Positions 7,606 through 26,125 of a stretch of 40,509 nt of DNA are shown here, one piece after another (within the stretch, counting starts at the first letter, position 1; each line of letters begins with the position of its first letter). The stretch comes from a virus. The notes under the pieces were generated by a model. It had not been told where the DNA came from, ran no database searches, and saw only the letters and a program-made list of their open reading frames with translations. Location: positions 1 to 40,509 of the IMG/VR virus record IMGVR_UViG_3300010271_000004; one strand, 5' to 3'. A program made the translations under genes and the position numbers.

Positions 7606-9016
7606 TGTAGTTTCGTTTCCTAATGCTTATTTTATTATTCATAATCTCCGCCACCCCTGTAGTTGCATCCTGTGCATCATCATGTTTGTTTTTACCTTCT
7701 CTTTGATACGTTGTCATTGATTTATAATATTCTGGCCATCTATCTCGCCAATTTATCGGAAAATAGATATGGTCCATTACCCATGTAGCATTGGATAATA
7801 TTCTAGCTTTTTTATTCTGTGATTGATGGAACCAAATAATTTTAGTCATGTTAATATTAAATTTTTCTTTCAATATCCTCTCTACTTGTCGAGCAAATCC
7901 TCTACCACCATTGTTAGACTCTATATAAGCTAAATTTACATTGTTTTCATATAATCTCTTTGCAGTTTCAGGCTCTGTAATCTCCATAGGCTCTTTTGTG
8001 TAATACACATCCAAGACGTAGGCCTCTTTGTTATAAATTCCAAATATCATACTGCATAAATAATCGTCACCCTCATCTGCAGTATCGGTATATGAATAAA
8101 TACCTTCAAATAACGAATTACCTTCCTCATCTCTTGGAATATCTGCGTATGTTTTAAATGAATTGTACAGCCTTCCTTTTATATCAATTGGCTCTTGTTG
8201 ATAGTTGGCACTTGCTATATCCTCACCCATAGCTCTTACTTTCATTTCGTAACTTTCTTTTGATAAGATTTCGTCACATAGCATAGTCCCATCATCTTGT
8301 AGGGCTTTCATGCATATATGTCTTATTTTCTTTTTCTCTTCTTTGAAATGCTCCAAAGCTCTCCCTGCTAAATCACCAGTTGCCCATCTAGTCATTATTA
8401 TGATGATTTTTCCACCTTCTTCGAGTCTGGATAGCATTGTATTAGTAAACCATTCCCAATGCTTTTCAAGTGTATTTTCATTATAGGCTTCTTCGCTATT
8501 CTTAATTAAGTCATCTATAATCATTAAAGTACATCCAAATCCTGTAGCGGTTCCAGTAGGAGAAGTAGCAAGGTAGTTATTATATCCACCTTCTAAGGAC
8601 CACAAATTCATTGCTGCATCCCCTTGCTTTATACGAACATGAGGGAATATATCTGAATATACTACTTTTTCTTCATCAGCTTTGACTTCCTGGATACCAT
8701 TTCTAACATTCTTTGAGAATACGGTTGATAAAGTTTCATTATACGATCCTGTCATGATCTTTTCTTGCTGGTTCTTTCCTAGCACCCATTGAGCAAATAG
8801 TCCTGCGGTTCTTGATTTACCATGTCTTGGTGGCATATTTATTATCAGTACATCATCATTAGAGAAGTAGAAACCCTGCATTTCATCACATAATGTTTTA
8901 AGAAATTCTCTATCTTCTTTATAAAAATCTGGCGCTAATAAATTGCAAAAATAAAAGAACTCACGTTTTGCAAGTTCTATTTTTGCATACTTCTTAATTA
9001 AGTTTTTATTAATCAT
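7586..9016 (-). CDS. terL: Terminase large subunit
   Basis: 476 aa with a Walker A-like MPPRHGKS, an LMIIDD Walker B-like motif and a C-terminal nuclease-type acidic region. It follows terS. Confidence 0.9.
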   Translation of the reverse strand: MINKNLIKKYAKIELAKREFFYFCNLLAPDFYKEDREFLKTLCDEMQGFYFSNDDVLIINMPPRHGKSRTAGLFAQWVLGKNQQEKIMTGSYNETLSTVFSKNVRNGIQEVKADEEKVVYSDIFPHVRIKQGDAAMNLWSLEGGYNNYLATSPTGTATGFGCTLMIIDDLIKNSEEAYNENTLEKHWEWFTNTMLSRLEEGGKIIIIMTRWATGDLAGRALEHFKEEKKKIRHICMKALQDDGTMLCDEILSKESYEMKVRAMGEDIASANYQQEPIDIKGRLYNSFKTYADIPRDEEGNSLFEGIYSYTDTADEGDDYLCSMIFGIYNKEAYVLDVYYTKEPMEITEPETAKRLYENNVNLAYIESNNGGRGFARQVERILKEKFNINMTKIIWFHQSQNKKARILSNATWVMDHIYFPINWRDRWPEYYKSMTTYQREGKNKHDDAQDATTGVAEIMNNKISIRKRNYSGKGAR

Positions 9017-9485
9017 TGTGTACCAACTTCTTTAGCTCTTCAGTAGTCAGTCCTGCAAAAGGATTGTTTATTTCCATATTACCTTTTATATCTACATCCC
9101 GTTTATCTCTCCACTCATTAGGTTTACGGTTCTTTAGCCAAAATATCTGTGCTGTTGTATCTCCTGGAACATGTTTTGTAGTTTGAATTATCTTACGTCC
9201 ATCATCACTAATTTCGATTTTTTCTTCTGTATACTCATATCCTAAAGCCCTTTTTAGTAGTGCATTCTCAACTTCTCTATCAACAACTTCTTTTCCCTTT
9301 TTTAGGGTAGCCATTAAGTCCGGATATTTCTTTTTGTACTCCTTAAAAGTTGAATATGCTACCCCTAAATTATAAGCAATTTGTTCATCTGTTAGACCAT
9401 CTCTTGCCCAACCTTCTATTTCAATCAGCCTTGGTTCTACATGCGTATGATATTTACTCGGTCTTCCACCTTTATTCTTATTCAC
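9009..9485 (-). CDS. terS: Terminase small subunit
   Basis: 158 aa with an N-terminal HTH (GGRPSKY...GLTDEQIAYNLGVAYSTFKEYKKK). It overlaps the terL start. Confidence 0.8.
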   Translation of the reverse strand: MNKNKGGRPSKYHTHVEPRLIEIEGWARDGLTDEQIAYNLGVAYSTFKEYKKKYPDLMATLKKGKEVVDREVENALLKRALGYEYTEEKIEISDDGRKIIQTTKHVPGDTTAQIFWLKNRKPNEWRDKRDVDIKGNMEINNPFAGLTTEELKKLVHND

Positions 9486-9511
9486 ATCACCTCACCTGCC
9501 TTTGTTACATT

Positions 9512-9532
9512 AAAAAAAGAGCCTGTTGGCTC
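9512..9532 (-). terminator. Intrinsic terminator just upstream of terS
   Basis: The minus strand reads GAGCC-aaca-GGCTC followed by TTTTTTT. Confidence 0.6.
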
Positions 9533-9556
9533 CGTAGGCTAATATTCACTTAATTT

Positions 9557-9745
9557 TTAAGGCCTTGTGCTCTCAATAAATTTAGGATCATCTGCCCATT
9601 CTTCAATATATCCACATTCTTTACACATATACTTAGTAGTTTCTGTTCCATCGTATACACCATCATTTCTTATGCCAGAAAAATTTCCTCTTGCGGTACC
9701 TTCCATCATTTCATTATCGCATTTCGGGCATTGCTTTTTATCCAT
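9557..9745 (-). CDS. Small zinc-ribbon protein
   Basis: The start is refined to ATG 9745 (MDKKQCPKCDNEMMEG...CKECGYIEEW), 8 nt after AAAGGGGGG. Two CxxC pairs are present. Confidence 0.6.
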   Translation of the reverse strand: MDKKQCPKCDNEMMEGTARGNFSGIRNDGVYDGTETTKYMCKECGYIEEWADDPKFIESTRP

Positions 9746-9890
9746 AACATCATCCCCCCTTTTCACTACTATAATTCGCCATAAAAAAGGAAAAATCCTT
9801 CTTTCATTCCCATTTTTTTGTAAAATTTTTCCCAAAATAAAGGAAAACCTTCTCTAAATGTCGAATGTTAAAAAGGGAGGAGGTGAAATT

Positions 9891-10055
9891 ATGGCTAGTC
9901 AATATCGCAAACGTAAAGGTAGTGATACTTGGCATTTTTGTAGTAACTGTTCCAACTGGCCAACTAGTAACTATGAAATTTCTTATACTAAACCTACTAG
10001 TGGAGAATTCTGTAATGAATGTCAGGCCAAGAAAAAAGCTGGGAACTGTAGTTAA
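9891..10055 (+). CDS. Reverse-oriented small Cys-rich (zinc-ribbon) protein, 54 aa
   Basis: ATG 9891 follows AGGGAGGAGGTG. The product is MASQYRKRKGSDTWHFCSNCSNWPTSNY...FCNECQAKKK, with CxxC...CxxC. It has its own downstream plus-strand terminator. Confidence 0.65.
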   Translation: MASQYRKRKGSDTWHFCSNCSNWPTSNYEISYTKPTSGEFCNECQAKKKAGNCS

Positions 10056-10366
10056 GGTATTGCTTTAAAAGATAATGATATTATGTTCCCAGCGAAATAC
10101 AATTTTTTTATGGAGGCGGTACAATCTACCTCCTTTTTTTTAGCAAAATCATCAAAACATGCTAGGCAGACTACTCGATCTTGATATTTTGACGGTACTA
10201 CAATCTTCCATATTTCATCAGGAACATAAAAATCAAATTTATCTCTATACCCACAAACTTTGCACCTTTGTTGCTGCTTGCACCAAACTTGACAATGTAT
10301 TTTAAACCATCTTATTGGCAATATAAAAAAATGTTCAAACCATTTAAAAATATACTCGATTGTCAT
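10052..10366 (-). CDS. Hypothetical Cys-rich protein
   Basis: 104-aa ORF (CKVCGYRD...CLACFDD). Its 3' end overlaps the plus-strand gene by 4 nt and contains that gene's terminator hairpin, so the exact C-terminus is uncertain. Confidence 0.5.
   Translation of the reverse strand: MTIEYIFKWFEHFFILPIRWFKIHCQVWCKQQQRCKVCGYRDKFDFYVPDEIWKIVVPSKYQDRVVCLACFDDFAKKKEVDCTASIKKLYFAGNIISLSFKAIP
10112..10141 (+). terminator. Intrinsic terminator for the plus-strand small gene
   Basis: GGAGG (10112..10116) - 12-nt loop - CCTCC (10129..10133), followed by TTTTTTTTT. Confidence 0.65.
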
Positions 10367-10489
10367 TGTTCCACCTCATTATATTTTATAATTATATGGT
10401 TGTTAATATTAGAATTTCCAAAACTAAAGAAAAAATTAAAAACCGCACAGGTTTTCAGTACGGTTAATACATGTTAATATTTTAAATCT

Positions 10490-10523
10490 AATAAAATTTA
10501 AAAGGACCCACCAAAGCGGGTCC
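10490..10523 (-). terminator. Intrinsic terminator ending the early/middle operon
   Basis: The minus strand reads GGACCC-gctttggt-GGGTCC followed by TTTTAAATTTTAT. Confidence 0.65.
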
Positions 10524-10578
10524 TACGAAAGGGGGTTACGGTATAAAAATCCTATTGTAAATATTATAACATACCTAA

Positions 10579-10618
10579 ACTGACACGTCACTGACAAAAA
10601 ACTGACAAGAAACTGACA
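10579..10618. repeat. Four direct ACTGACA repeats at exact 11-bp spacing
   Basis: Copies lie at 10579, 10590, 10601 and 10612. The region is non-coding, between the stop of ORF 10653..11000 and the terminator at 10523. Confidence 0.9.
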
Positions 10619-10652
10619 GATAGTTCGCATAATCCTTATTATGTGCAATATT

Positions 10653-11000
10653 TTATTTCAACTTCTGACTACAATACCTACAATACATATCATTTTTAGC
10701 TATTTTCTCTTGGCATCTAGGACAAAAATAAAACTTCCTTCCATCATATTCTTTGCACCAAACTTCTTTTACGTCTGTCAAATTGTTACCTTTTGCAACT
10801 AATTTCTTTATTGGTTCAAGTCTAAATTGATTATGTTCCCAATCAAAACCTAATCCTGCAAATTTAACACCGCTTGCTGCCCTTGCGCCTATTGAACTTT
10901 CTGAAAGTGTTATTAAAACTTGTATTTCTTCTGGATTTTGATGGGATTGTAAATGTTCAATTGTAAAATCTACTATTGCTTTTAACTCTTTTAAATTCAC
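10653..11000 (-). CDS. Hypothetical protein with a C-terminal zinc ribbon
   Basis: 115-aa ORF ending in FCPRCQEKIAKNDMYCRYCSQKLK. Confidence 0.6.
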   Translation of the reverse strand: MNLKELKAIVDFTIEHLQSHQNPEEIQVLITLSESSIGARAASGVKFAGLGFDWEHNQFRLEPIKKLVAKGNNLTDVKEVWCKEYDGRKFYFCPRCQEKIAKNDMYCRYCSQKLK

Positions 11001-11004
11001 GGTC

Positions 11005-11262
11005 TCACTCCTTCCCTAATTTTTCTATTAATTTTGGTAACCCTTTTCTCACAATCTCAGCCGATGCTCTTTCAATAACTCTCTCAATGACTTCATCTTT
11101 CTTTGAATAGATGTATTGCTTGATTGCCTTGTCTACACCTTCCCTTATTCCAAACTTTGCTTCTCTGTTCTCGTAATATCCGTTTGCTACAATACGCTTT
11201 GCAATTTCCTGTGATACCAATTCAGCAATATAACTTTCATCAATTTCAATTTCTAACTTCAT
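11005..11262 (-). CDS. Hypothetical protein
   Basis: 85-aa ORF, tightly packed, with an RBS present. Confidence 0.5.
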   Translation of the reverse strand: MKLEIEIDESYIAELVSQEIAKRIVANGYYENREAKFGIREGVDKAIKQYIYSKKDEVIERVIERASAEIVRKGLPKLIEKLGKE

Positions 11263-11284
11263 TTTTCACCTCTCCTTTTCAATT

Positions 11285-11821
11285 TTACAACGCATCCGCC
11301 CCAAAAAGCACAACCTTGAGTTTATTCACCAACCTGTTTTTATGCCGATAAAACGTCCGTTCATCGCAATGTAACCTCTCCGCAATCTCCGCCGGCGATA
11401 ATCCATCCCAATACTTCAGCGGTATTATATCGTAATATTCATCATCCTTTATAGTCTCCAACGCCCGTTCAATCCGTTGTATTTCTCTTTTGGTCCTCAT
11501 CATACTTAATTTTCGTCTTTCAATATATTCATCTTCATCCTGTCCGCCTGCTCCACTTCTGGACATTACTACAATATCAGACGACCTACGCTTTAATACC
11601 ATTTGTCCACTCTTTATATCCTCTTCATCTTGAGCCACTTTTAATTTCAGCGCTGGCAGCGAATATAATAACCTCTCTGTTTCCTTAAAATAATTCCGCT
11701 GCCCTGCCTCAACTTCTGCATTAGCTTTAATAATAGCCTCTGTAGCCTTTTTTGTTGCTTCATCAACAGTCTTTTTGATTATTTTTATAACTTCAGGTGA
11801 TATATCGGTTTTTGTTGACAT
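11285..11821 (-). CDS. Late-gene transcriptional regulator, sigma-70 region-4-like HTH (ArpU/RinA-type)
   Basis: The C-terminus YWDGLSPAEIAERLHCDERTFYRHKNRLVNKLKVVL is a region-4-type HTH. The gene lies between the replication and packaging modules, as phage late activators do. Confidence 0.65.
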   Translation of the reverse strand: MSTKTDISPEVIKIIKKTVDEATKKATEAIIKANAEVEAGQRNYFKETERLLYSLPALKLKVAQDEEDIKSGQMVLKRRSSDIVVMSRSGAGGQDEDEYIERRKLSMMRTKREIQRIERALETIKDDEYYDIIPLKYWDGLSPAEIAERLHCDERTFYRHKNRLVNKLKVVLFGADAL

Positions 11822-11855
11822 TTTAACCCCTCACTTTCTTCGCTACTTTATTAAA

Positions 11856-12011
11856 CTAATACTCTTCTGGCTCTTTACCTAACTGATAATATTCTTTATA
11901 ATCTCTCCAATTATCCAAATCCAAACCTTTACTTTTTGCATCCTCATAATCTTCTTGACTGTATGGCGGTTCATTGCCATTGTTATAAAAATTTCCAAAT
12001 TTAGAATCCAT
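11856..12011 (-). CDS. Small acidic protein (51 aa), absent from the ORF track
   Basis: ATG 12011 is preceded by GAAGGAGG at a 7-8 nt spacing. The product is MDSKFGNFYNNGNEPPYSQEDYEDAKSKGLDLDNWRDYKEYYQLGKEPEEY. Confidence 0.5.
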   Translation of the reverse strand: MDSKFGNFYNNGNEPPYSQEDYEDAKSKGLDLDNWRDYKEYYQLGKEPEEY

Positions 12012-12153
12012 ACAAAAACCTCCTTCACTAAACTACCACTAAAAGAACAGACTACCGAAGGAGGATTAATACATAATATGGTAATGGGGATTTCCCTCCT
12101 TTTCTTAATTTTTTATTTTTGTTCGGTAGCCTGTTTATCTGCTTTGCTAAAAA

Positions 12154-13509
12154 CTAACAATACTTCATACTCCTAATCCGTGCTTTTAAAGCTTCCAACA
12201 GTGCTTCTTGCCTCTGTTCTTTACCGTTTAATACTTTCAAAACCTCTTCATCTACGGTATTTTCTGTGATGATGTGATATATCCTTACCGTTTCCGTTTG
12301 TCCTTGCCGGTTTAATCTTGCATTGGCCTGCTGATATAACTCTAAACTCCAATTCAATCCAAACCAAATAACGATATGGCCGCCGGCTTGAAGATTTAAT
12401 CCGTGTCCTGCTGACGCTGGATGCGCCAATAGTATTTTAATCTTTCCCACATTCCAATCCTTAACGTCCCGGTTCGTATCTAATATTCTTGCCTCCTTAA
12501 ATTTTTTAAGGATCCTGTCTTTATCATGTTGGAAGTTATAAAACACCAATACCGGTTCTCCGTTTGCTTCGTCTATTAGTTCCTCTAATACTTCAAGCTT
12601 TTTATTATGTATCTCAATCACTTCTTTGTTTTCCGTGTATACTGCACCATTTGCAAGCTGAAGTAATTTATTTGTAACTGCTGCTGCATTAAGTGCTGTT
12701 ATATCTTTCCCATCAATCTCAAGCACCGCCTCTCTCTCCAACTGTTTATATAAATTAAACTCTTTTTTATCAAGCTTAACCCTGCGATTTATAAACAACG
12801 GCTCTTTCAATTTCAAATAATCTTTTGCTTTCATACTGATACAAATATCCTTAATTGCATTGTCTATTTCATCCTTGGCTCCTGCTTTTAACTTATATTC
12901 GTTGTAACCGGGACGGTAAAGCGTATCAAAATAACGTCTTCGGAATTCTGTCAATGTTTTTCCCAACCGTTCTCCCCGGTCCAAGAGATAAATTTGCGGC
13001 CATAAATCCTCATAGCCATTTGGTGTAGGTGTTCCGGTAAGCCCTATGATTCGTTTAATTCTCGGTCGTACTTTTCTTAGCTTTTTGAATCTCAAACTTT
13101 TATTGGACTTAAAACTTGATAATTCATCCACAATTACCGTATTAAAATCCCATTTTATCCCCAGTAAATCAACAAGCCATGCAATGTTATCTCTAGATAT
13201 AATATAAACATCTGCCTCTTGTTTTAATGCGGCTTCTCTCTGCTTGGCCGTACCCATTATTTTCACTATCTTTAAATTTTTAAGATGGTCCCATTTTAAA
13301 TGTTCCGTAGGCCAGGTATCCTCTGCTACACGCTTTGGCGCTATCACTAAAGCTTTCACATCTTCAAGGTAATTATTTTTTAACTCTTCAATAAAAGTTA
13401 ATGCTATTACTGTCTTGCCAAGTCCCATATCTAAAAAGAGTCCTGCTGCTGGACGTTCTAAAGCAAACTGTAAAGCTGTTTTTTGATAATCATGTGGAAT
13501 GAACTTCAT
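12154..13509 (-). CDS. SNF2-family (DEAD/H-like) helicase
   Basis: Motifs GLGKT, DELS, LTGTP and C-terminal QQANARLNRQGQ are SNF2/RAD54-type helicase motifs. Confidence 0.85.
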   Translation of the reverse strand: MKFIPHDYQKTALQFALERPAAGLFLDMGLGKTVIALTFIEELKNNYLEDVKALVIAPKRVAEDTWPTEHLKWDHLKNLKIVKIMGTAKQREAALKQEADVYIISRDNIAWLVDLLGIKWDFNTVIVDELSSFKSNKSLRFKKLRKVRPRIKRIIGLTGTPTPNGYEDLWPQIYLLDRGERLGKTLTEFRRRYFDTLYRPGYNEYKLKAGAKDEIDNAIKDICISMKAKDYLKLKEPLFINRRVKLDKKEFNLYKQLEREAVLEIDGKDITALNAAAVTNKLLQLANGAVYTENKEVIEIHNKKLEVLEELIDEANGEPVLVFYNFQHDKDRILKKFKEARILDTNRDVKDWNVGKIKILLAHPASAGHGLNLQAGGHIVIWFGLNWSLELYQQANARLNRQGQTETVRIYHIITENTVDEEVLKVLNGKEQRQEALLEALKARIRSMKYC

Positions 13510-22132: not shown

Positions 22133-22375
22133 TTATGCTGTTTCCTTATTATCCATATCATTACATGACATTTTGTCGGGTGCATAATCAAAAAAAATTT
22201 CATCAACTGTAGTACCATACATATCCGCAATTTTTTTTGCTAAATTAAAACCAGGTGTTCTTACTCCTCTCTCAAGCATAGATAGATAATCAACTGAAAT
22301 ATCTAAAATATCTGCTACTTCTTTTTGAGTTAACCCCTCTTTTTTTCTAAATGCTTTCAGGTTATTTTTCTTCAT
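22133..22375 (-). CDS. cro: Cro-like XRE-family HTH regulator
   Basis: LTQKEVADILDISVDYLSMLERGVRTP is an XRE HTH. The gene is divergent from the CI-like gene, with RBS GGAGGTG. Confidence 0.8.
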   Translation of the reverse strand: MKKNNLKAFRKKEGLTQKEVADILDISVDYLSMLERGVRTPGFNLAKKIADMYGTTVDEIFFDYAPDKMSCNDMDNKETA

Positions 22376-22392: not shown

Positions 22393-22506
22393 GTACAATT
22401 TGTCATGTCACATTTTTATATTATCGTACATTTTGTCGTTTGTCAATATATTTTTTAAATTTTTATGACGTTTTGTACGATATATTTATTATACGTACAA
22501 ATTGTT
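22393..22506. promoter_or_regulatory. Genetic switch: four 12-bp operator-like sites and divergent promoters
   Basis: The sites are GTACAATTTGTC (22393), GTACATTTTGTC (22426), GACGTTTTGTAC (22467, inverted) and GTACAAATTGTT (22495). The minus-strand promoter has TTGACA (22446..22441), a 17-nt spacer and TAATAT (22423..22418). A plus-strand TATAAT lies at 22508..22513. Confidence 0.7.
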
Positions 22507-22532
22507 ATATAATTAGAAAGGAGGGAAACAAA

Positions 22533-22901
22533 ATGTCATATTCTATTGGAAAACGTTTAAAACAATTAAGAGAAGAATCTGGATTGCAACAAAAAGATAT
22601 TGCAAAAGTGTTAGGGGTTACTGAAAGTGCCATTGGACATTATGAACGTGGGGCTAGAAATTTAGACCCTGAATCGATTAAAAAACTTGCCGATTTCTTT
22701 GGGGTATCAAGTGATTATTTGCTTGGCCGTACAAACATACGAGAACCCATAACTCCTACATCAGATGATGAAGTAAATGAAATATTGGAAAGTTTACACA
22801 AACGGCCTGAAATGAAAGTGTTATTCAGTATATCTAAAAAGGCTTCCAAAGAAGATATTGAAATAGCCGTTAAAATTATTGAGGCGCTTAAGGGGGATTA
22901 A
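22533..22901 (+). CDS. CI-like XRE-family repressor
   Basis: The start is refined to ATG 22533 after AAAGGAGGG. LQQKDIAKVLGVTESAIGHYERGARNL is an XRE HTH, and a C-terminal domain is present. Confidence 0.8.
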   Translation: MSYSIGKRLKQLREESGLQQKDIAKVLGVTESAIGHYERGARNLDPESIKKLADFFGVSSDYLLGRTNIREPITPTSDDEVNEILESLHKRPEMKVLFSISKKASKEDIEIAVKIIEALKGD

Positions 22902-22907
22902 GACACC

Positions 22908-23141
22908 ATGGATAAGATTGTAAGACTCATTAAACTACCATCAACAGTCAGAGGCATGACTGTTATGGATAGTGATGGGAATTACAATATTTACATCAAT
23001 AAAAACTTAAGTTATGAAATGCAAAGAGAAGCGTATCAACACGAAATGGCTCATATTGAAGAAGACGACTTTAGCAGTAATTCGTCTGTTGCAGTATTAG
23101 AAAACAGAATAAAATATAAAATAAAACGAAAGGATGATTGA
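22908..23141 (+). CDS. ImmA/IrrE-like zinc metallopeptidase (short form)
   Basis: It has an HEMAH (HExxH) motif and lies immediately downstream of the XRE repressor, as in ImmR/ImmA pairs. Confidence 0.65.
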   Translation: MDKIVRLIKLPSTVRGMTVMDSDGNYNIYINKNLSYEMQREAYQHEMAHIEEDDFSSNSSVAVLENRIKYKIKRKDD

Positions 23142-23427
23142 AATGGAAAACATTTTAAAGGAAATTTTAACCGAAGTTAAAGGAATCAAAAGTGAATTGA
23201 AAGAGGTTAAAGAAAAAGTTACAAATTTAGAAAAAGGACAAAATGAATTAAAAGTTGCTATAAACAACATTAATGACCGTCTTGATGATATGGACGGAAG
23301 AAATGCTAATAATCATCTTGAAATTAGAACAAAACTTGAAGAAATGAGCAACATAAACAACTCTTTAGCTGAGATGTATGGACAACATGAAGTAGAGATT
23401 CGTTCATTAAAACGCAGACCGGTATAA
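23134..23427 (+). CDS. Hypothetical coiled-coil protein
   Basis: 97-aa heptad-rich ORF. An alternative ATG lies at 23143. Confidence 0.5.
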   Translation: MIEMENILKEILTEVKGIKSELKEVKEKVTNLEKGQNELKVAINNINDRLDDMDGRNANNHLEIRTKLEEMSNINNSLAEMYGQHEVEIRSLKRRPV

Positions 23428-23439
23428 TAATATATCCTT

Positions 23440-23461
23440 TATATCATTTAAACATGATATA
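23440..23461. promoter_or_regulatory. Perfect palindrome TATATCAT-N6-ATGATATA upstream of the accessory operon
   Basis: Seen directly in the sequence, 24 nt upstream of ATG 23485. Confidence 0.5.
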
Positions 23462-23484
23462 CAAGTTGCAAGGAGAGTGTATAA

Positions 23485-24012
23485 ATGACAACTTATGAGA
23501 ACATCAATGATCAAGAGCTTAAAATAGCAAAAATATTGATTCAAATATTAAATACTTCCGAAAGGGATACATCTAAAATATCATATAATCAAACAAAAAC
23601 ATATTTAAGTGTATTATTTTATAATATTCCATGTATGAGAATTAAAAATGGGAAAAAAACAAAATTTATATCAATAAAAAATTACTTAAATTACACTCTT
23701 AAACTATGTAATAATATCAATTTTGTAGTCGGTAAGGATGGTTGGAGTAGGATTGATTTAGAAAATGAAATGGATGTATTGCAATTATCCCAACCTATTT
23801 TAGAGATATATGACTATTGTTATGCAAAATCATCTGGAGAATTATTCGGATGTTGTCATCGATATGTTGAATGTTCAGATAAAAGAAAATGTATAATAGA
23901 AGACAACCCATTATCAAAAGGTTGCATTTACAGACAAAATCTTATTAATGGAAAAATCTTTTATGGGAAAAATGCGAACCACGAAAAGGTGGTATCAAAT
24001 AATGTTGTTTGA
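23485..24012 (+). CDS. Orphan Cys-rich protein (175 aa)
   Basis: RBS AAGGAGAG. I recognise no family. The C-terminal cluster is FGCCHRYVECSDKRKC...GC. The stop overlaps the start of the next gene. Confidence 0.6.
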   Translation: MTTYENINDQELKIAKILIQILNTSERDTSKISYNQTKTYLSVLFYNIPCMRIKNGKKTKFISIKNYLNYTLKLCNNINFVVGKDGWSRIDLENEMDVLQLSQPILEIYDYCYAKSSGELFGCCHRYVECSDKRKCIIEDNPLSKGCIYRQNLINGKIFYGKNANHEKVVSNNVV

Positions 24013-24937
24013 TTTCGTTGCTATAGATTTTGAAACAGCTAATTCAAATTTTAACAGTGCATGTTCTATCGGCATTGCAGCAGTATCAAATGGCAAAATT
24101 GAAAAGACGGAATACTTTTTAATTCGTCCACCATCATTACAATTTAATAATAAAAATATTGAAATTAATGGTATAACTCCTGAAGATGTTAAGGACGCAC
24201 CATTTTTTTATGAAGTTTGGGGAAAAATCAAACATTATTTTTATAATAATATAATTGTCGCACATAATGCAATATTTGATATGACAATATTAAAAACTTG
24301 TTTATTAGAATATGAAATCGATATGCCAAATTTTACTTATCTATGTAGTATGCAATTATGCAACGCTATACATTTTGACAATTGTGTTGGAAACTCATTA
24401 AAAGATAAAGCTGAGTATTTTAATATCGAACTACCAAATCATCATAATGCTTTATGTGATGCAATAACATGTGCAAAATTAGTTATAGCTCTTCTTGATG
24501 AAATAAAAAAAGGAAACTTAAAACAAACAGATTTTAATAATTATATTACGCTATATTCCTTCTCTAATGTAAAACCTCAAAAATCTTTCCAAAAAAGTCG
24601 AAGAAAAGATTTTAAAAAAGTACTCATCTCAGAAATTAGACCCTCAAGCAACAATTTTGATAGATCTAACTTCTTCTATAATAAAAATGTTGTTTTTACC
24701 GGTGAACTTAAAACGTTAGACCGTAGAGAAGCTATGCAAAAAGTTGTAGACCGTGGTGGCATAATAAAAAGCTCTGTTTCTTCTAAGACAGATTGCCTTA
24801 TAGTTGGTATACAGGATAAATCTATTGTTGGTGAAGAAGGAATGAGTACAAAACAGAAAAAAGCATATGAGTTAAAAGCAAAAGGATATAACATAAAAAT
24901 TATTTTTGAAGATGAGTTCATTGACTTATTAGGATAA
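24002..24937 (+). CDS. DnaQ-like DEDDh 3'-5' exonuclease fused to a C-terminal BRCT domain
   Basis: Exo I is AIDFET, Exo II is VAHNAIFD and Exo III is HHNALCDA. The BRCT-like part is NVVFTGELKTLDRREAMQKVVDRGGIIKSSVSSKTDCLIVG. The start is refined to ATG 24002 after AAAGGTGG. Confidence 0.75.
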   Translation: MLFDFVAIDFETANSNFNSACSIGIAAVSNGKIEKTEYFLIRPPSLQFNNKNIEINGITPEDVKDAPFFYEVWGKIKHYFYNNIIVAHNAIFDMTILKTCLLEYEIDMPNFTYLCSMQLCNAIHFDNCVGNSLKDKAEYFNIELPNHHNALCDAITCAKLVIALLDEIKKGNLKQTDFNNYITLYSFSNVKPQKSFQKSRRKDFKKVLISEIRPSSNNFDRSNFFYNKNVVFTGELKTLDRREAMQKVVDRGGIIKSSVSSKTDCLIVGIQDKSIVGEEGMSTKQKKAYELKAKGYNIKIIFEDEFIDLLG

Positions 24938-25027
24938 GATGCCATCCTGTATAATCAAAATTAAAAACAAAAACTTTAAACTACGGAATGGTTATTGATA
25001 TTTATTATTAGAAAGGAGTGATTACAA

Positions 25028-26125
25028 ATGAAAATCAGCAAACATGCCAGGGGGAATTACTACACCACATTCAAGGGAAAGTTCATCTACGGATCAACCC
25101 CTGAGGAAGTGAAGGAAAAATACGACGAGCTGAAATACCAATATCGGCAAGGGTACAACGTCGACAAGAACCCCACACTGGAAGACTATATGATTCTGTG
25201 GTATAACACTCATAAAAAGGGCCAGGGCGCACTGAAAACCCAGGAGATGTACCGGAACTGTATAAACAACCACATCAACCCGGCCTTAGGTCACAAACGG
25301 TTGAAGGAAATAACCGCTACCCAGGTTCAGGCGTTGCTGAACAGTATAACGAGTTCTAAAAGCCTTGCCCATAAGGTGCGGATCACCCTGAACCAAATAT
25401 TTAAGCAGGCCATGGCTGACAGGCTGGTTAATTTCAACCCGGTGCAGGCCTGCAAGGTGATAGCGCCGGACAAGCCTAAGCGCGAATTCCTTTCTGGCGC
25501 ACAAAGAGAGAAACTGCTTGAAATTCTGAAAGACAATAGGCTATATCCACTCATATACACCATGCTTTATACCGGTATGCGTCAGGGTGAAGCTCTGGCG
25601 CTCACCTGGTCTGACATTGATTTTGAAAACAAACGTATAATTGTTTCAAAAGCCATTGAATACGAAAAATCAAAGTCAAGAACCAAAGATCCAAAGACAG
25701 AAAGAGGTTTCCGGCAAATACCTATACCGGAAGAACTTGCGGAATATCTCCAGGAGTACAAAAAGAAAACCAAAAGCATATATGTATTTCCCGGCCATGC
25801 CGGAGGCTTGATGGGGCTAACGGAACTAAATAACCATTGGCGGAAGGCGCAAAAGAAAATTAAAAAATGGTTTGAAAACAACCCAGATGCCGGCATCGAA
25901 CCTTTCAATCTTACCTGCAGGTTACTACGTCACACATATTGCACCGGTCTGTTTGATGCAGAGATAGACGAAGTTTCCGCAGCCGAAATAATGGGGCACG
26001 ATGTTAGTATCATGCGGGAGGTTTATACTCACATTTCAGATGAAAGAAAAAAGGCAACTGTTGAAAAAATTGAAGCGTTGTATAAGACAAAAAAGCAATC
26101 AAAAAAAGAGGCAGCGTCAAAATAA
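25028..26125 (+). CDS. int: Tyrosine integrase
   Basis: ...TGMRQGEALALTWSDID..., ...LLRHTYCTGL... and ...GHDVSIMREVYTH match the R...HxxR...Y catalytic pattern of phage integrases. Confidence 0.9.
   Translation: MKISKHARGNYYTTFKGKFIYGSTPEEVKEKYDELKYQYRQGYNVDKNPTLEDYMILWYNTHKKGQGALKTQEMYRNCINNHINPALGHKRLKEITATQVQALLNSITSSKSLAHKVRITLNQIFKQAMADRLVNFNPVQACKVIAPDKPKREFLSGAQREKLLEILKDNRLYPLIYTMLYTGMRQGEALALTWSDIDFENKRIIVSKAIEYEKSKSRTKDPKTERGFRQIPIPEELAEYLQEYKKKTKSIYVFPGHAGGLMGLTELNNHWRKAQKKIKKWFENNPDAGIEPFNLTCRLLRHTYCTGLFDAEIDEVSAAEIMGHDVSIMREVYTHISDERKKATVEKIEALYKTKKQSKKEAASK

Follow-up and report, generated by a model that had tools for sequence, protein, structure and literature searches.

In the lysogeny block of a temperate phage of gut-type Clostridia, two overlapping open reading frames (ORFs) were found to form a mobile cassette, which encodes a DEDDh (DnaQ-like) exonuclease carrying a BRCT domain (Exo-BRCT) and a putative partner subunit of 175 amino acids (aa), ORF175. 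The sequence is the IMG/VR virus record IMGVR_UViG_3300010271_000004, of which all 40,509 nucleotides (positions 1 to 40,509) were analysed and are called the window here; the cassette sits right after the repressor gene. The active site of the exonuclease is conserved, the two proteins are paired or fused in other genomes, and the cassette occupies a position in the lysogeny operon, is mobile and is independent of the replication module. Our best reading, put forward tentatively, is that the pair would be a two-subunit 3'-5' DNA exonuclease, expressed in the lysogen, that excludes incoming DNA. Genes of this kind follow the repressor gene in prophages of S. aureus, pneumococcus, gut Clostridia and Campylobacter; they are widespread and have been annotated in various ways. 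The obligate, unnamed partner in Clostridia, the conserved active site and a cysteine-rich (Cys) module shared with restriction enzymes turn a vague annotation into a testable system.

Pairing and fusion of the two proteins

A set of 125 loci was gathered, reduced to 82 clusters at 80% identity and scored with purpose-built hidden Markov models. An Exo(-BRCT) partner was present in 67 of the 82 clusters. The two genes were adjacent in the order Exo-ORF175 in 28 of them, in the order ORF175-Exo on the same strand in 20 and on opposite strands in one, and the remaining 18 were fusions. Of the 54 full-length ORF175 homologues, 52 had an Exo partner; of the two without one, one lies at a contig end and the other probably has a frameshift. 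The association with exonuclease-BRCT genes that a first-pass annotation of the window had supposed is therefore borne out by these counts and by the fusions in both orders. Adjacent or overlapping arrangements recur in the homologous loci. Among 161 homologous proteins examined, 137 were stand-alone and 20 were exonuclease fusions. All ten of the long representatives tested carry an RNase_T domain and nine of them also BRCT, with the ORF175 domain at either the N- or the C-terminus.

The DEDDh residues are kept in 62-64 of the 64 partner enzymes. Taken together, the swapped gene order, the fusions both ways and the intact active site indicate that ORF175 and Exo-BRCT are a genuine functional pair, probably two subunits of one active enzyme. 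A type II toxin-antitoxin pair was considered and rejected on account of the natural fusions in both orders (18 of the 82 locus clusters, 20 of the 161 representatives).

One fusion, from Butyricicoccus porcorum (L062:5095-6486), is a protein of 463 aa with BRCT and an ORF175 domain, of which the N-terminal ~200 residues were not scored as RNase_T. Its exonuclease domain may be degenerate or replaced. A similarity to GapS2 (0.0018) was limited to the BRCT region of this protein and was judged to be noise; the GAPS2 paper reports no recognisable domain.

The exonuclease

The first-pass annotation had read three DnaQ motifs and a BRCT-like module in the last of three ORFs. All three ORFs are where it had placed them, and both domains score above the Pfam cut-offs. 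The motifs are AIDFET (Exo I, D-x-E), VAHNAIFD (Exo II, D) and HHNALCDA (Exo III, H-x4-D). The exonuclease domain (residues ~4-170) matched RNase_T, PF00929 (7.5e-20; 72.6 bits, cut-off 24), and residues ~222-309 matched BRCT, PF00533 (6.2e-9; 36.4 bits, cut-off 21.3). The latter is of the LigA type, with the core GK..TG...R..GG...V..T..L visible in an alignment of 43 sequences. Across the same number of homologues, no conserved motif, including any of the clamp-binding type, was observed in the linker (residues ~170-225). The nearest solved sequences are PolC-exo, DinG-exo, ExoX and epsilon.

Against the NCBIfam family PRK06195 ('DNA polymerase III subunit epsilon'), positions 2-305 of 309 were aligned, at 273 bits, the curated cut-off being 373. 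On this comparison Exo-BRCT is a relative of PRK06195 and not an equivalog. Both domains are covered by phrog_192 (E = 1.6e-42; Exo residues 4-310, profile positions 107-364 of 397), and the PADLOC profile PDC-S48 was matched at 6.6e-29 in two stretches, with only the Exo and BRCT parts aligning. Homology thus points to 3'-5' exonuclease activity, with DNA as the probable substrate. A role as the replicative proofreading subunit (epsilon/DnaQ) is not supported, because the linker has no conserved motif and the gene has a variable prophage slot, a foreign GC content and no core-genome location.

Longer in-frame starts exist at 23948 and 23963. The ATG at 24002 was preferred because it is preceded by AAAGGTGG and because the PRK06195 alignment begins at residue 4. 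The first-pass annotation was right that this start overlaps the end of ORF175 and has its ribosome-binding site (RBS) within the upstream ORF, an arrangement that suggests translational coupling.

ORF175 and its cysteine module

No family was assigned to ORF175 by Pfam or PADLOC. Residues 11-113 resemble the C-terminal part of the PRK06807 exonuclease (NCBIfam, 9e-7), which is a separate exonuclease family, and phrog_14632 also matches (3e-5). A word-indexed search returned 17 stand-alone homologues with an invariant C-terminal motif. An exhaustive profile search at the level of 50%-identity clusters returned 1,328 representatives, of which 1,103 had an E-value of 1e-10 or below. The protein, previously taken for an orphan, is in fact a member of a large unannotated family of at least 1,328 clusters.

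The AlphaFold2 model has a mean predicted local distance difference test (pLDDT) score of 84.7 and a predicted template modelling (TM) score of 0.80. In blocks of ten residues, pLDDT averaged between 85 and 96 for residues 11-120 and between 72 and 85 for residues 121-160. In the model, residues ~9-116 fold into an alpha/beta domain, after which comes a small, helical region rich in Cys. The ORF175 profile A1 gave no match to PDB sequences even at E = 10. For residues ~9-116, Foldseek listed the C-terminal DNA-binding domain of T4 MotA, YjbR, DUF1801, DUF5655 and Alc, with probabilities of 0.9-1.0, E-values of 0.0045-0.1 (best 0.029 in PDB and 0.0045 in BFVD) and TM-scores of 0.3-0.5, the upper value being normalised on the target. 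This weak resemblance makes a nucleic-acid-binding 'double-wing' fold a consistent lead for the modelled N-terminal domain, and not a demonstration. The MotA C-terminal domain, YjbR, DUF1801 and DUF5655 are its best fold matches, yet they have no sequence similarity to it and none has the Cys module.

This module is a discrete unit of 43 aa (residues 121-163, FGCCHRYVECSDKRKCIIEDNPLSKGCIYRQNLINGKIFYGKN) with the consensus FGCC[HS]RY..CSD...C(x10-15)C.YR.NL..G[KR]IFYGKN. It has five invariant or near-invariant cysteines, with His or Ser after the CC pair. The first-pass annotation had noted the cluster, with an x6 spacing that proved to be x5; the spacing in ORF175 is CCH-x4-C-x5-C-x10-C. A metal site (iron-sulphur, Fe-S, or zinc) is plausible from this pattern, and the hosts of the ORF175 family loci are all strictly anaerobic Clostridia.

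The module was also found on other proteins. Two of these are Sau3AI-family restriction endonucleases (528 and 513 bits, NCBIfam cut-off 300), in which it is C-terminal (L083:4531-6144) or N-terminal (L118:5971-7731). Each gene belongs to an operon that also encodes a C5 cytosine methylase and Vsr, and the second has two further neighbours, an AspBHI-like type IV enzyme and an SNF2/PLD protein. In five further proteins (L039:5998-7041, L105:5998-7080, L036:5621-6352, L038:5914-6660 and L046:1941-3359) the module is joined to regions of 170-300 aa that gave no Pfam, NCBIfam or PADLOC match. The L039 protein is encoded on the Cro (lytic) side, downstream of a GIY-YIG-like ORF. Free-standing small ORFs of 47-79 aa exist as well, and a search for fusion partners with the module-only profile (A3) returned solely such proteins, which was uninformative on architectures.

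Genomic setting and mobility

For the pairs with both flanks available, the search reached 2 kb upstream for a CI-like gene and 4 kb downstream for a recombinase. By this definition, 33 of 52 clostridial pairs sit between a co-oriented CI-like helix-turn-helix (HTH) gene and a Tyr or Ser recombinase. The phages that carry the pair have different replication modules (PolA/VapE, RecT/YqaJ or REP_ORF2-G2P). In locus L011 the cassette is identical but the replication module is RecT/YqaJ and not PolA; the exonuclease is therefore outside the replication module. This agrees with the first-pass annotation, which had seen no obvious need of the nuclease for replication, given the PolA that the window encodes; the PolA replication module is indeed present.

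The contents of the interval between CI and the integrase (Int) vary between relatives. In L128, the integrase is 87% identical to that of the window, but the slot holds only a DUF4352 lipoprotein (L128:2822-3364). In relatives of the CI gene, the cargo is a DUF3800, a SWIM zinc-finger or a HIRAN protein (L207:5338-6117, L208:6159-6707 and L211:6327-7046). The CI-Int interval is a variable cargo slot, and the place of the pair in the lysogeny operon was rightly recognised as a cargo position from the start.

The cassette is compositionally foreign to the phage, which has ~35% GC. The GC content is 26.1% for ORF175 (z -3.6) and 28.1% for Exo (z -2.9), against 35.9 +/- 2.7% for 22 other large ORFs; Int deviates in the opposite direction (43.9%, z +3.0). 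L017 has an identical ORF175 with an integrase only 71% identical. With the identical cassette of L011 and the GC content of Int, this shows that the lysogeny block is strongly mosaic.

The cassette was found at both ends of one 47,355-bp contig (ENA ERZ773287 NODE_548, loci L007 and L010); the assembly therefore wraps a circular or terminally redundant genome, estimated at ~41 kb.

For 17 of the 52 pairs, neither a CI-like gene nor a recombinase was nearby. Unrelated housekeeping genes made up most of their neighbours; integrases, a transposase and, twice, Ltp were also present. The neighbours of the copies outside prophages matched defence profiles for Cas I-C, Mokosh, MADS, Hhe, AbiD, SoFic and PD-T4-6. 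Ltp, a superinfection-exclusion lipoprotein, adjoins the pair in L001 and two further loci.

Exo-BRCT in deposited phages

Full-length homologues of Exo-BRCT (30-38% identity) were detected by tblastn in 64 deposited phages. The carriers include the S. aureus phages phiNM3, phi12, 47, phi2958PVL and N315, pneumococcal IPP phages, Javan prophages and satellites, and Campylobacter CJIE4-2. The product names are inconsistent ('DNA ligase', 'Pol III-like ATP dependent helicase', 'DinG family helicase', 'Pol III epsilon' and 'exonuclease'). Named homologues are phiNM3 gp05, the phi12 'Pol III-like helicase', phage 47 ORF013, the IPP 'exonuclease' and dnaQ of CJIE4-2.

Seven annotated regions, from phages of three genera and two phyla, were inspected. 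In all seven, the Exo-BRCT gene is co-oriented with a CI-type repressor gene and follows it directly or one to three genes downstream; the gap from cI is 15 nt in the S. aureus phages. The gene is upstream of the integrase in six of the seven, and the stretch examined of CJIE4-2 has no annotated integrase. In S. aureus Phi13, a cI-initiated transcript runs into a downstream lysogeny gene (PMC9694928).

No homologue of ORF175 was found by tblastn in 50,697 phage records. In phiNM3 and CJIE4, the exonuclease is flanked by small genes, which were considered as cryptic relatives of ORF175 and rejected, as hhalign found them to be unrelated. The partner is therefore a clostridial elaboration. In Campylobacter phage CJIE4-2 (L223, record 8587-12683), the gene order is CI repressor, hypothetical gene, dnaQ-like Exo-BRCT, hypothetical gene and KAP-family P-loop nucleoside triphosphatase. 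The linkage of cI and the exonuclease therefore reaches beyond Firmicutes, with a different possible partner.

Layout of the window

The features of the lysogeny block are listed in Table 1. The genes from CI to Int are all co-oriented. In a motif scan, promoter-like sites were found at 22400-22427 and 22465-22492, and the CI-to-Int block had no terminator-like site on the plus strand and no strong internal promoter match. No near-identical phage was found in INPHARED.

Table 1. Features of the lysogeny block and the adjoining Cro-like gene (window positions)
Feature	Position	Strand	Basis
Cro-like HTH gene, divergent from CI	22133-22375	-	protein domain match
CI-like HTH_3 repressor, first gene of the plus-strand lysogeny operon	22530..22901	+	HTH_3 9.5e-19
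Mini-ImmA, 77-aa HExxH protein, M78/IrrE type	22908..23141	+	Peptidase_M78 0.007 (below cut-off); phrog_20936 2e-13
ORF97, coiled-coil, 97 aa	23134-23427	+	generic coiled-coil matches only
Palindrome TATATCAT-N6-ATGATATA, perfect 8-6-8, between ORF97 and ORF175	23440..23461		sequence read directly
ORF175, putative exonuclease partner subunit, 175 aa	23485..24012	+	PRK06807 and phrog_14632 matches
RBS AAAGGTGG of Exo, inside ORF175	23985-23992	+	sequence read directly
ORF175 stop / Exo start overlap, 11 nt	24002..24012	+	sequence read directly; TGA at 24010-24012
Exo-BRCT, DEDDh (DnaQ-like) exonuclease, 311 aa	24002..24937	+	RNase_T and BRCT matches
Tyrosine integrase, closes the lysogeny block	25028..26125	+	Phage_integrase 1.5e-21; SAM-like N-terminal domains

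The module had been described as one of two or three genes. The pair of ORF175 and exonuclease stands, and ORF97 does not belong to it. Apart from one distant coiled-coil protein, all homologues of ORF97 came from nearly identical phage contigs, and it was missing from all other loci that carry the pair. As a third component it was rejected, being lineage-specific and having generic coiled-coil matches only. The palindrome is perfect and present as a single copy in the window, as the first-pass annotation had seen, and lies 23 nt (not 24) before the ATG of ORF175. It has no terminator-like character. It was absent upstream of the nearest non-identical ORF175 homologues, in L126 and L059 (51% identical), and no related site was found in the CI/Cro intergenic region, for which reasons a conserved operator was rejected. 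As the palindrome is not conserved, nothing supports a function for it.

The mini-ImmA retains only the HExxH region of an M78/IrrE protease, and proteins of similar size are also encoded between CI and the pair in L029, L058, L075, L078, L104 and L121. The leaders before CI (22508-22535, TATAATTAGAAAGGAGG...ATG) and Int (25003-25030, TATTATTAGAAAGGAGT...ATG) are 79% identical over 28 nt. The two may share a promoter or RBS context, and Int would then have an expression signal of its own.

Proposed function and alternatives

In the proposed mechanism, ORF175 and Exo-BRCT would form one DnaQ-type 3'-5' DNA exonuclease, as suggested by the single polypeptide of many relatives. The BRCT domain, the alpha/beta domain of ORF175 and the Cys module would supply substrate recognition or regulation. 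The operon structure predicts that the pair is transcribed with the CI repressor, so that the enzyme would be present in the lysogen. Its targets would be free 3' ends, 3' cohesive ends or single-stranded DNA of superinfecting phages or other mobile DNA. The outcome, as the genomic context suggests, would be exclusion or defence for both prophage and host, as with rexAB on the lambda cI transcript. The context fits a role of this kind: Ltp and defence genes as neighbours, the Cys module on restriction enzymes, the match to PDC-S48, and the precedent of the TONDO exonucleases described below. If it holds, the defence catalogue would gain a two-component system based on a DNA exonuclease and a new family of accessory domains with at least 1,300 clusters, and misleading annotations in many phage genomes would be corrected.

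Several points weigh against an exclusion role. No functional study of, or experiment on, the ORF175/Exo family was found in the literature. PDC-S48 is itself a candidate, and the match to it is partial. The matches of the neighbours to defence profiles stand without a background comparison, and the profiles for the MkoA helicase, the PD-T4-6 kinase and SoFic fit generic domains too. The TONDO precedent concerns ISG20-like RNA exonucleases, whereas the solved relatives nearest to the enzyme of the window are DnaQ, PolC and DinG. A constitutive, processive exonuclease in a lysogen needs a rule to tell self from non-self, and none is evident. Finally, the near-universal placement directly after cI, out to Campylobacter, is tighter than would be expected of interchangeable cargo, and could reflect a role in the lysogeny switch.

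Such a role is the alternative that survives best, although we consider it unlikely. The BRCT-guided exonuclease would be a sensor or amplifier of DNA damage, which widens nicks or turns damaged 3' ends into single-stranded DNA. This would give a stronger RecA/ImmA-type signal to inactivate the adjacent repressor, or would tune the establishment of lysogeny or excision. The explanation stays alive because the Exo gene is so tightly linked to cI across phyla, being downstream of it in all seven annotated phages and in 33 of the 52 clostridial loci. Mini-ImmA or ImmA-like genes often lie between CI and the pair, the BRCT domain is of the LigA type, and the HIRAN protein in the same slot of L211 is of a kind predicted to bind DNA and to act in the DNA damage response. 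Many of the CI repressors linked to the pair are short and HTH-only, and their inactivation would require an external route; the S. aureus carriers, however, have a self-cleaving S24-type CI, which would not need a helper. The 17 pairs among housekeeping or defence genes, with no CI-like gene or recombinase, are also at odds with a switch function, as is the presence of the Cys module on restriction enzymes. The pair is altogether missing from close relatives whose integrase or CI is similar, and is thus dispensable for the switch.

A broader view, which joins two proposals and which we hold to be doubtful, starts from the Cys module: it would be a new unit that binds metal (possibly Fe-S, sensitive to oxygen or redox state) and that licenses or targets the unrelated nucleases to which anaerobic Firmicutes attach it, among them DEDDh-BRCT exonucleases, restriction enzymes of the Sau3AI type and several unknown effectors. 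On the same view, a pan-bacterial 'cI-exonuclease' operon would be an unrecognised functional class of prophage genes. In these, a repressor-coupled exonuclease would police incoming DNA ends, or would link the sensing of DNA ends or damage to the lysis-lysogeny switch.

Lysogenic conversion with no part in defence, in which a DnaQ-like editing exonuclease would work with host polymerases or ligase as a DNA-repair or proofreading accessory and benefit the host, was judged improbable. The homology to the epsilon and PolC proofreading domains, the Exo+BRCT architecture as in mycobacterial DnaQ (10.1101/2023.10.24.563508) and the match to PRK06195 over the full length would all agree with it. This match, however, scored 273 bits where the cut-off is 373, and the linker is without a conserved clamp-binding-like motif. 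The distribution is patchy and mobile, the GC content is foreign, and no link to replication or repair operons is seen among the neighbours. A repair function would also leave unexplained the dedicated partner, whose Cys module is shared with restriction enzymes.

The pair could also serve anti- or counter-defence, shielding the phage itself, for example through the breakdown of immune DNA or oligonucleotide signals of the host, or of competitor DNA, during infection or induction. It is well established that some phages encode nucleases against immune signalling molecules, and a bare Cys-module protein occurs in the early lytic region of L039. This reading was nevertheless the least supported of the options in the first-pass annotation and is very improbable, as the pair lies on the repressor strand outside the early lytic operon, also occurs in chromosomes outside prophages, and has DNA proofreading-type exonucleases, not oligonucleotide phosphodiesterases, as its nearest relatives.

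The homologues in phiNM3 (S. aureus Newman) and phi12 (8325) make the question of exclusion, induction or repair genetically tractable.

Comparison with known systems

Position on the repressor transcript recalls lambda cI-rexA-rexB and Ltp of TP-J34, which are also accessory genes on such a transcript; this is an analogy of position only, with no sequence or mechanistic kinship. The diDNases of clostridial and actinomycete islands are found beside an HTH gene and near defence systems (PMC11706625). An identity with these NrnC-like DEDD enzymes was rejected, as they are of a different DEDD subfamily, and the parallel is ecological only (PMC11706625).

The TONDOs are bacterial ISG20-like DEDDh exonucleases with auxiliary domains, which defend against RNA phages and reside in prophages and mobile elements (PMC13344964). 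In one of them, VPhiTon, an adjacent small ORF is required along with the exonuclease (PMC13344964). The pair in the window is like them, by description only, in combining a DEDDh exonuclease with a variable auxiliary domain or adjacent ORF. The TONDOs were found via ISG20 and trim the 3' ends of RNA phages, whereas the solved sequences nearest to the enzyme of the window are those of the DNA exonucleases PolC-exo, DinG, ExoX and epsilon. BRCT is not mentioned in the TONDO paper (PMC13344964).

Mycobacterial DnaQ (Exo+BRCT) is an alternative proofreader that improves replication fidelity (10.1101/2023.10.24.563508). This protein and the families PRK06195 and PRK06063 have the same two-domain architecture as Exo-BRCT. 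In comparison with mycobacterial DnaQ and PRK06195, the gene of the window is below the curated cut-off, is mobile prophage cargo, and has a dedicated partner with a Cys module.

Like the protein of the window, the PDC-S48 profile combines DEDDh (positions 6-173) with BRCT (about 334-377). It is longer (411 positions against 311 aa), with ~100 positions unmatched, and represents a single-gene predicted candidate without a partner. No paper mentioning PDC-S48 was found in the literature. The lysogeny-module 'DNA polymerase exonuclease subunit' of Firmicutes phages, phrog_192, has the same DEDDh and BRCT domains and the same position after cI, with no assigned function; unlike the window, those phages have no ORF175-type partner. 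The exonuclease is a prophage-borne nuclease candidate with relatives in PDC-S48 and phrog_192, and what is new here is its unannotated, obligate partner family and the mobile Cys module.

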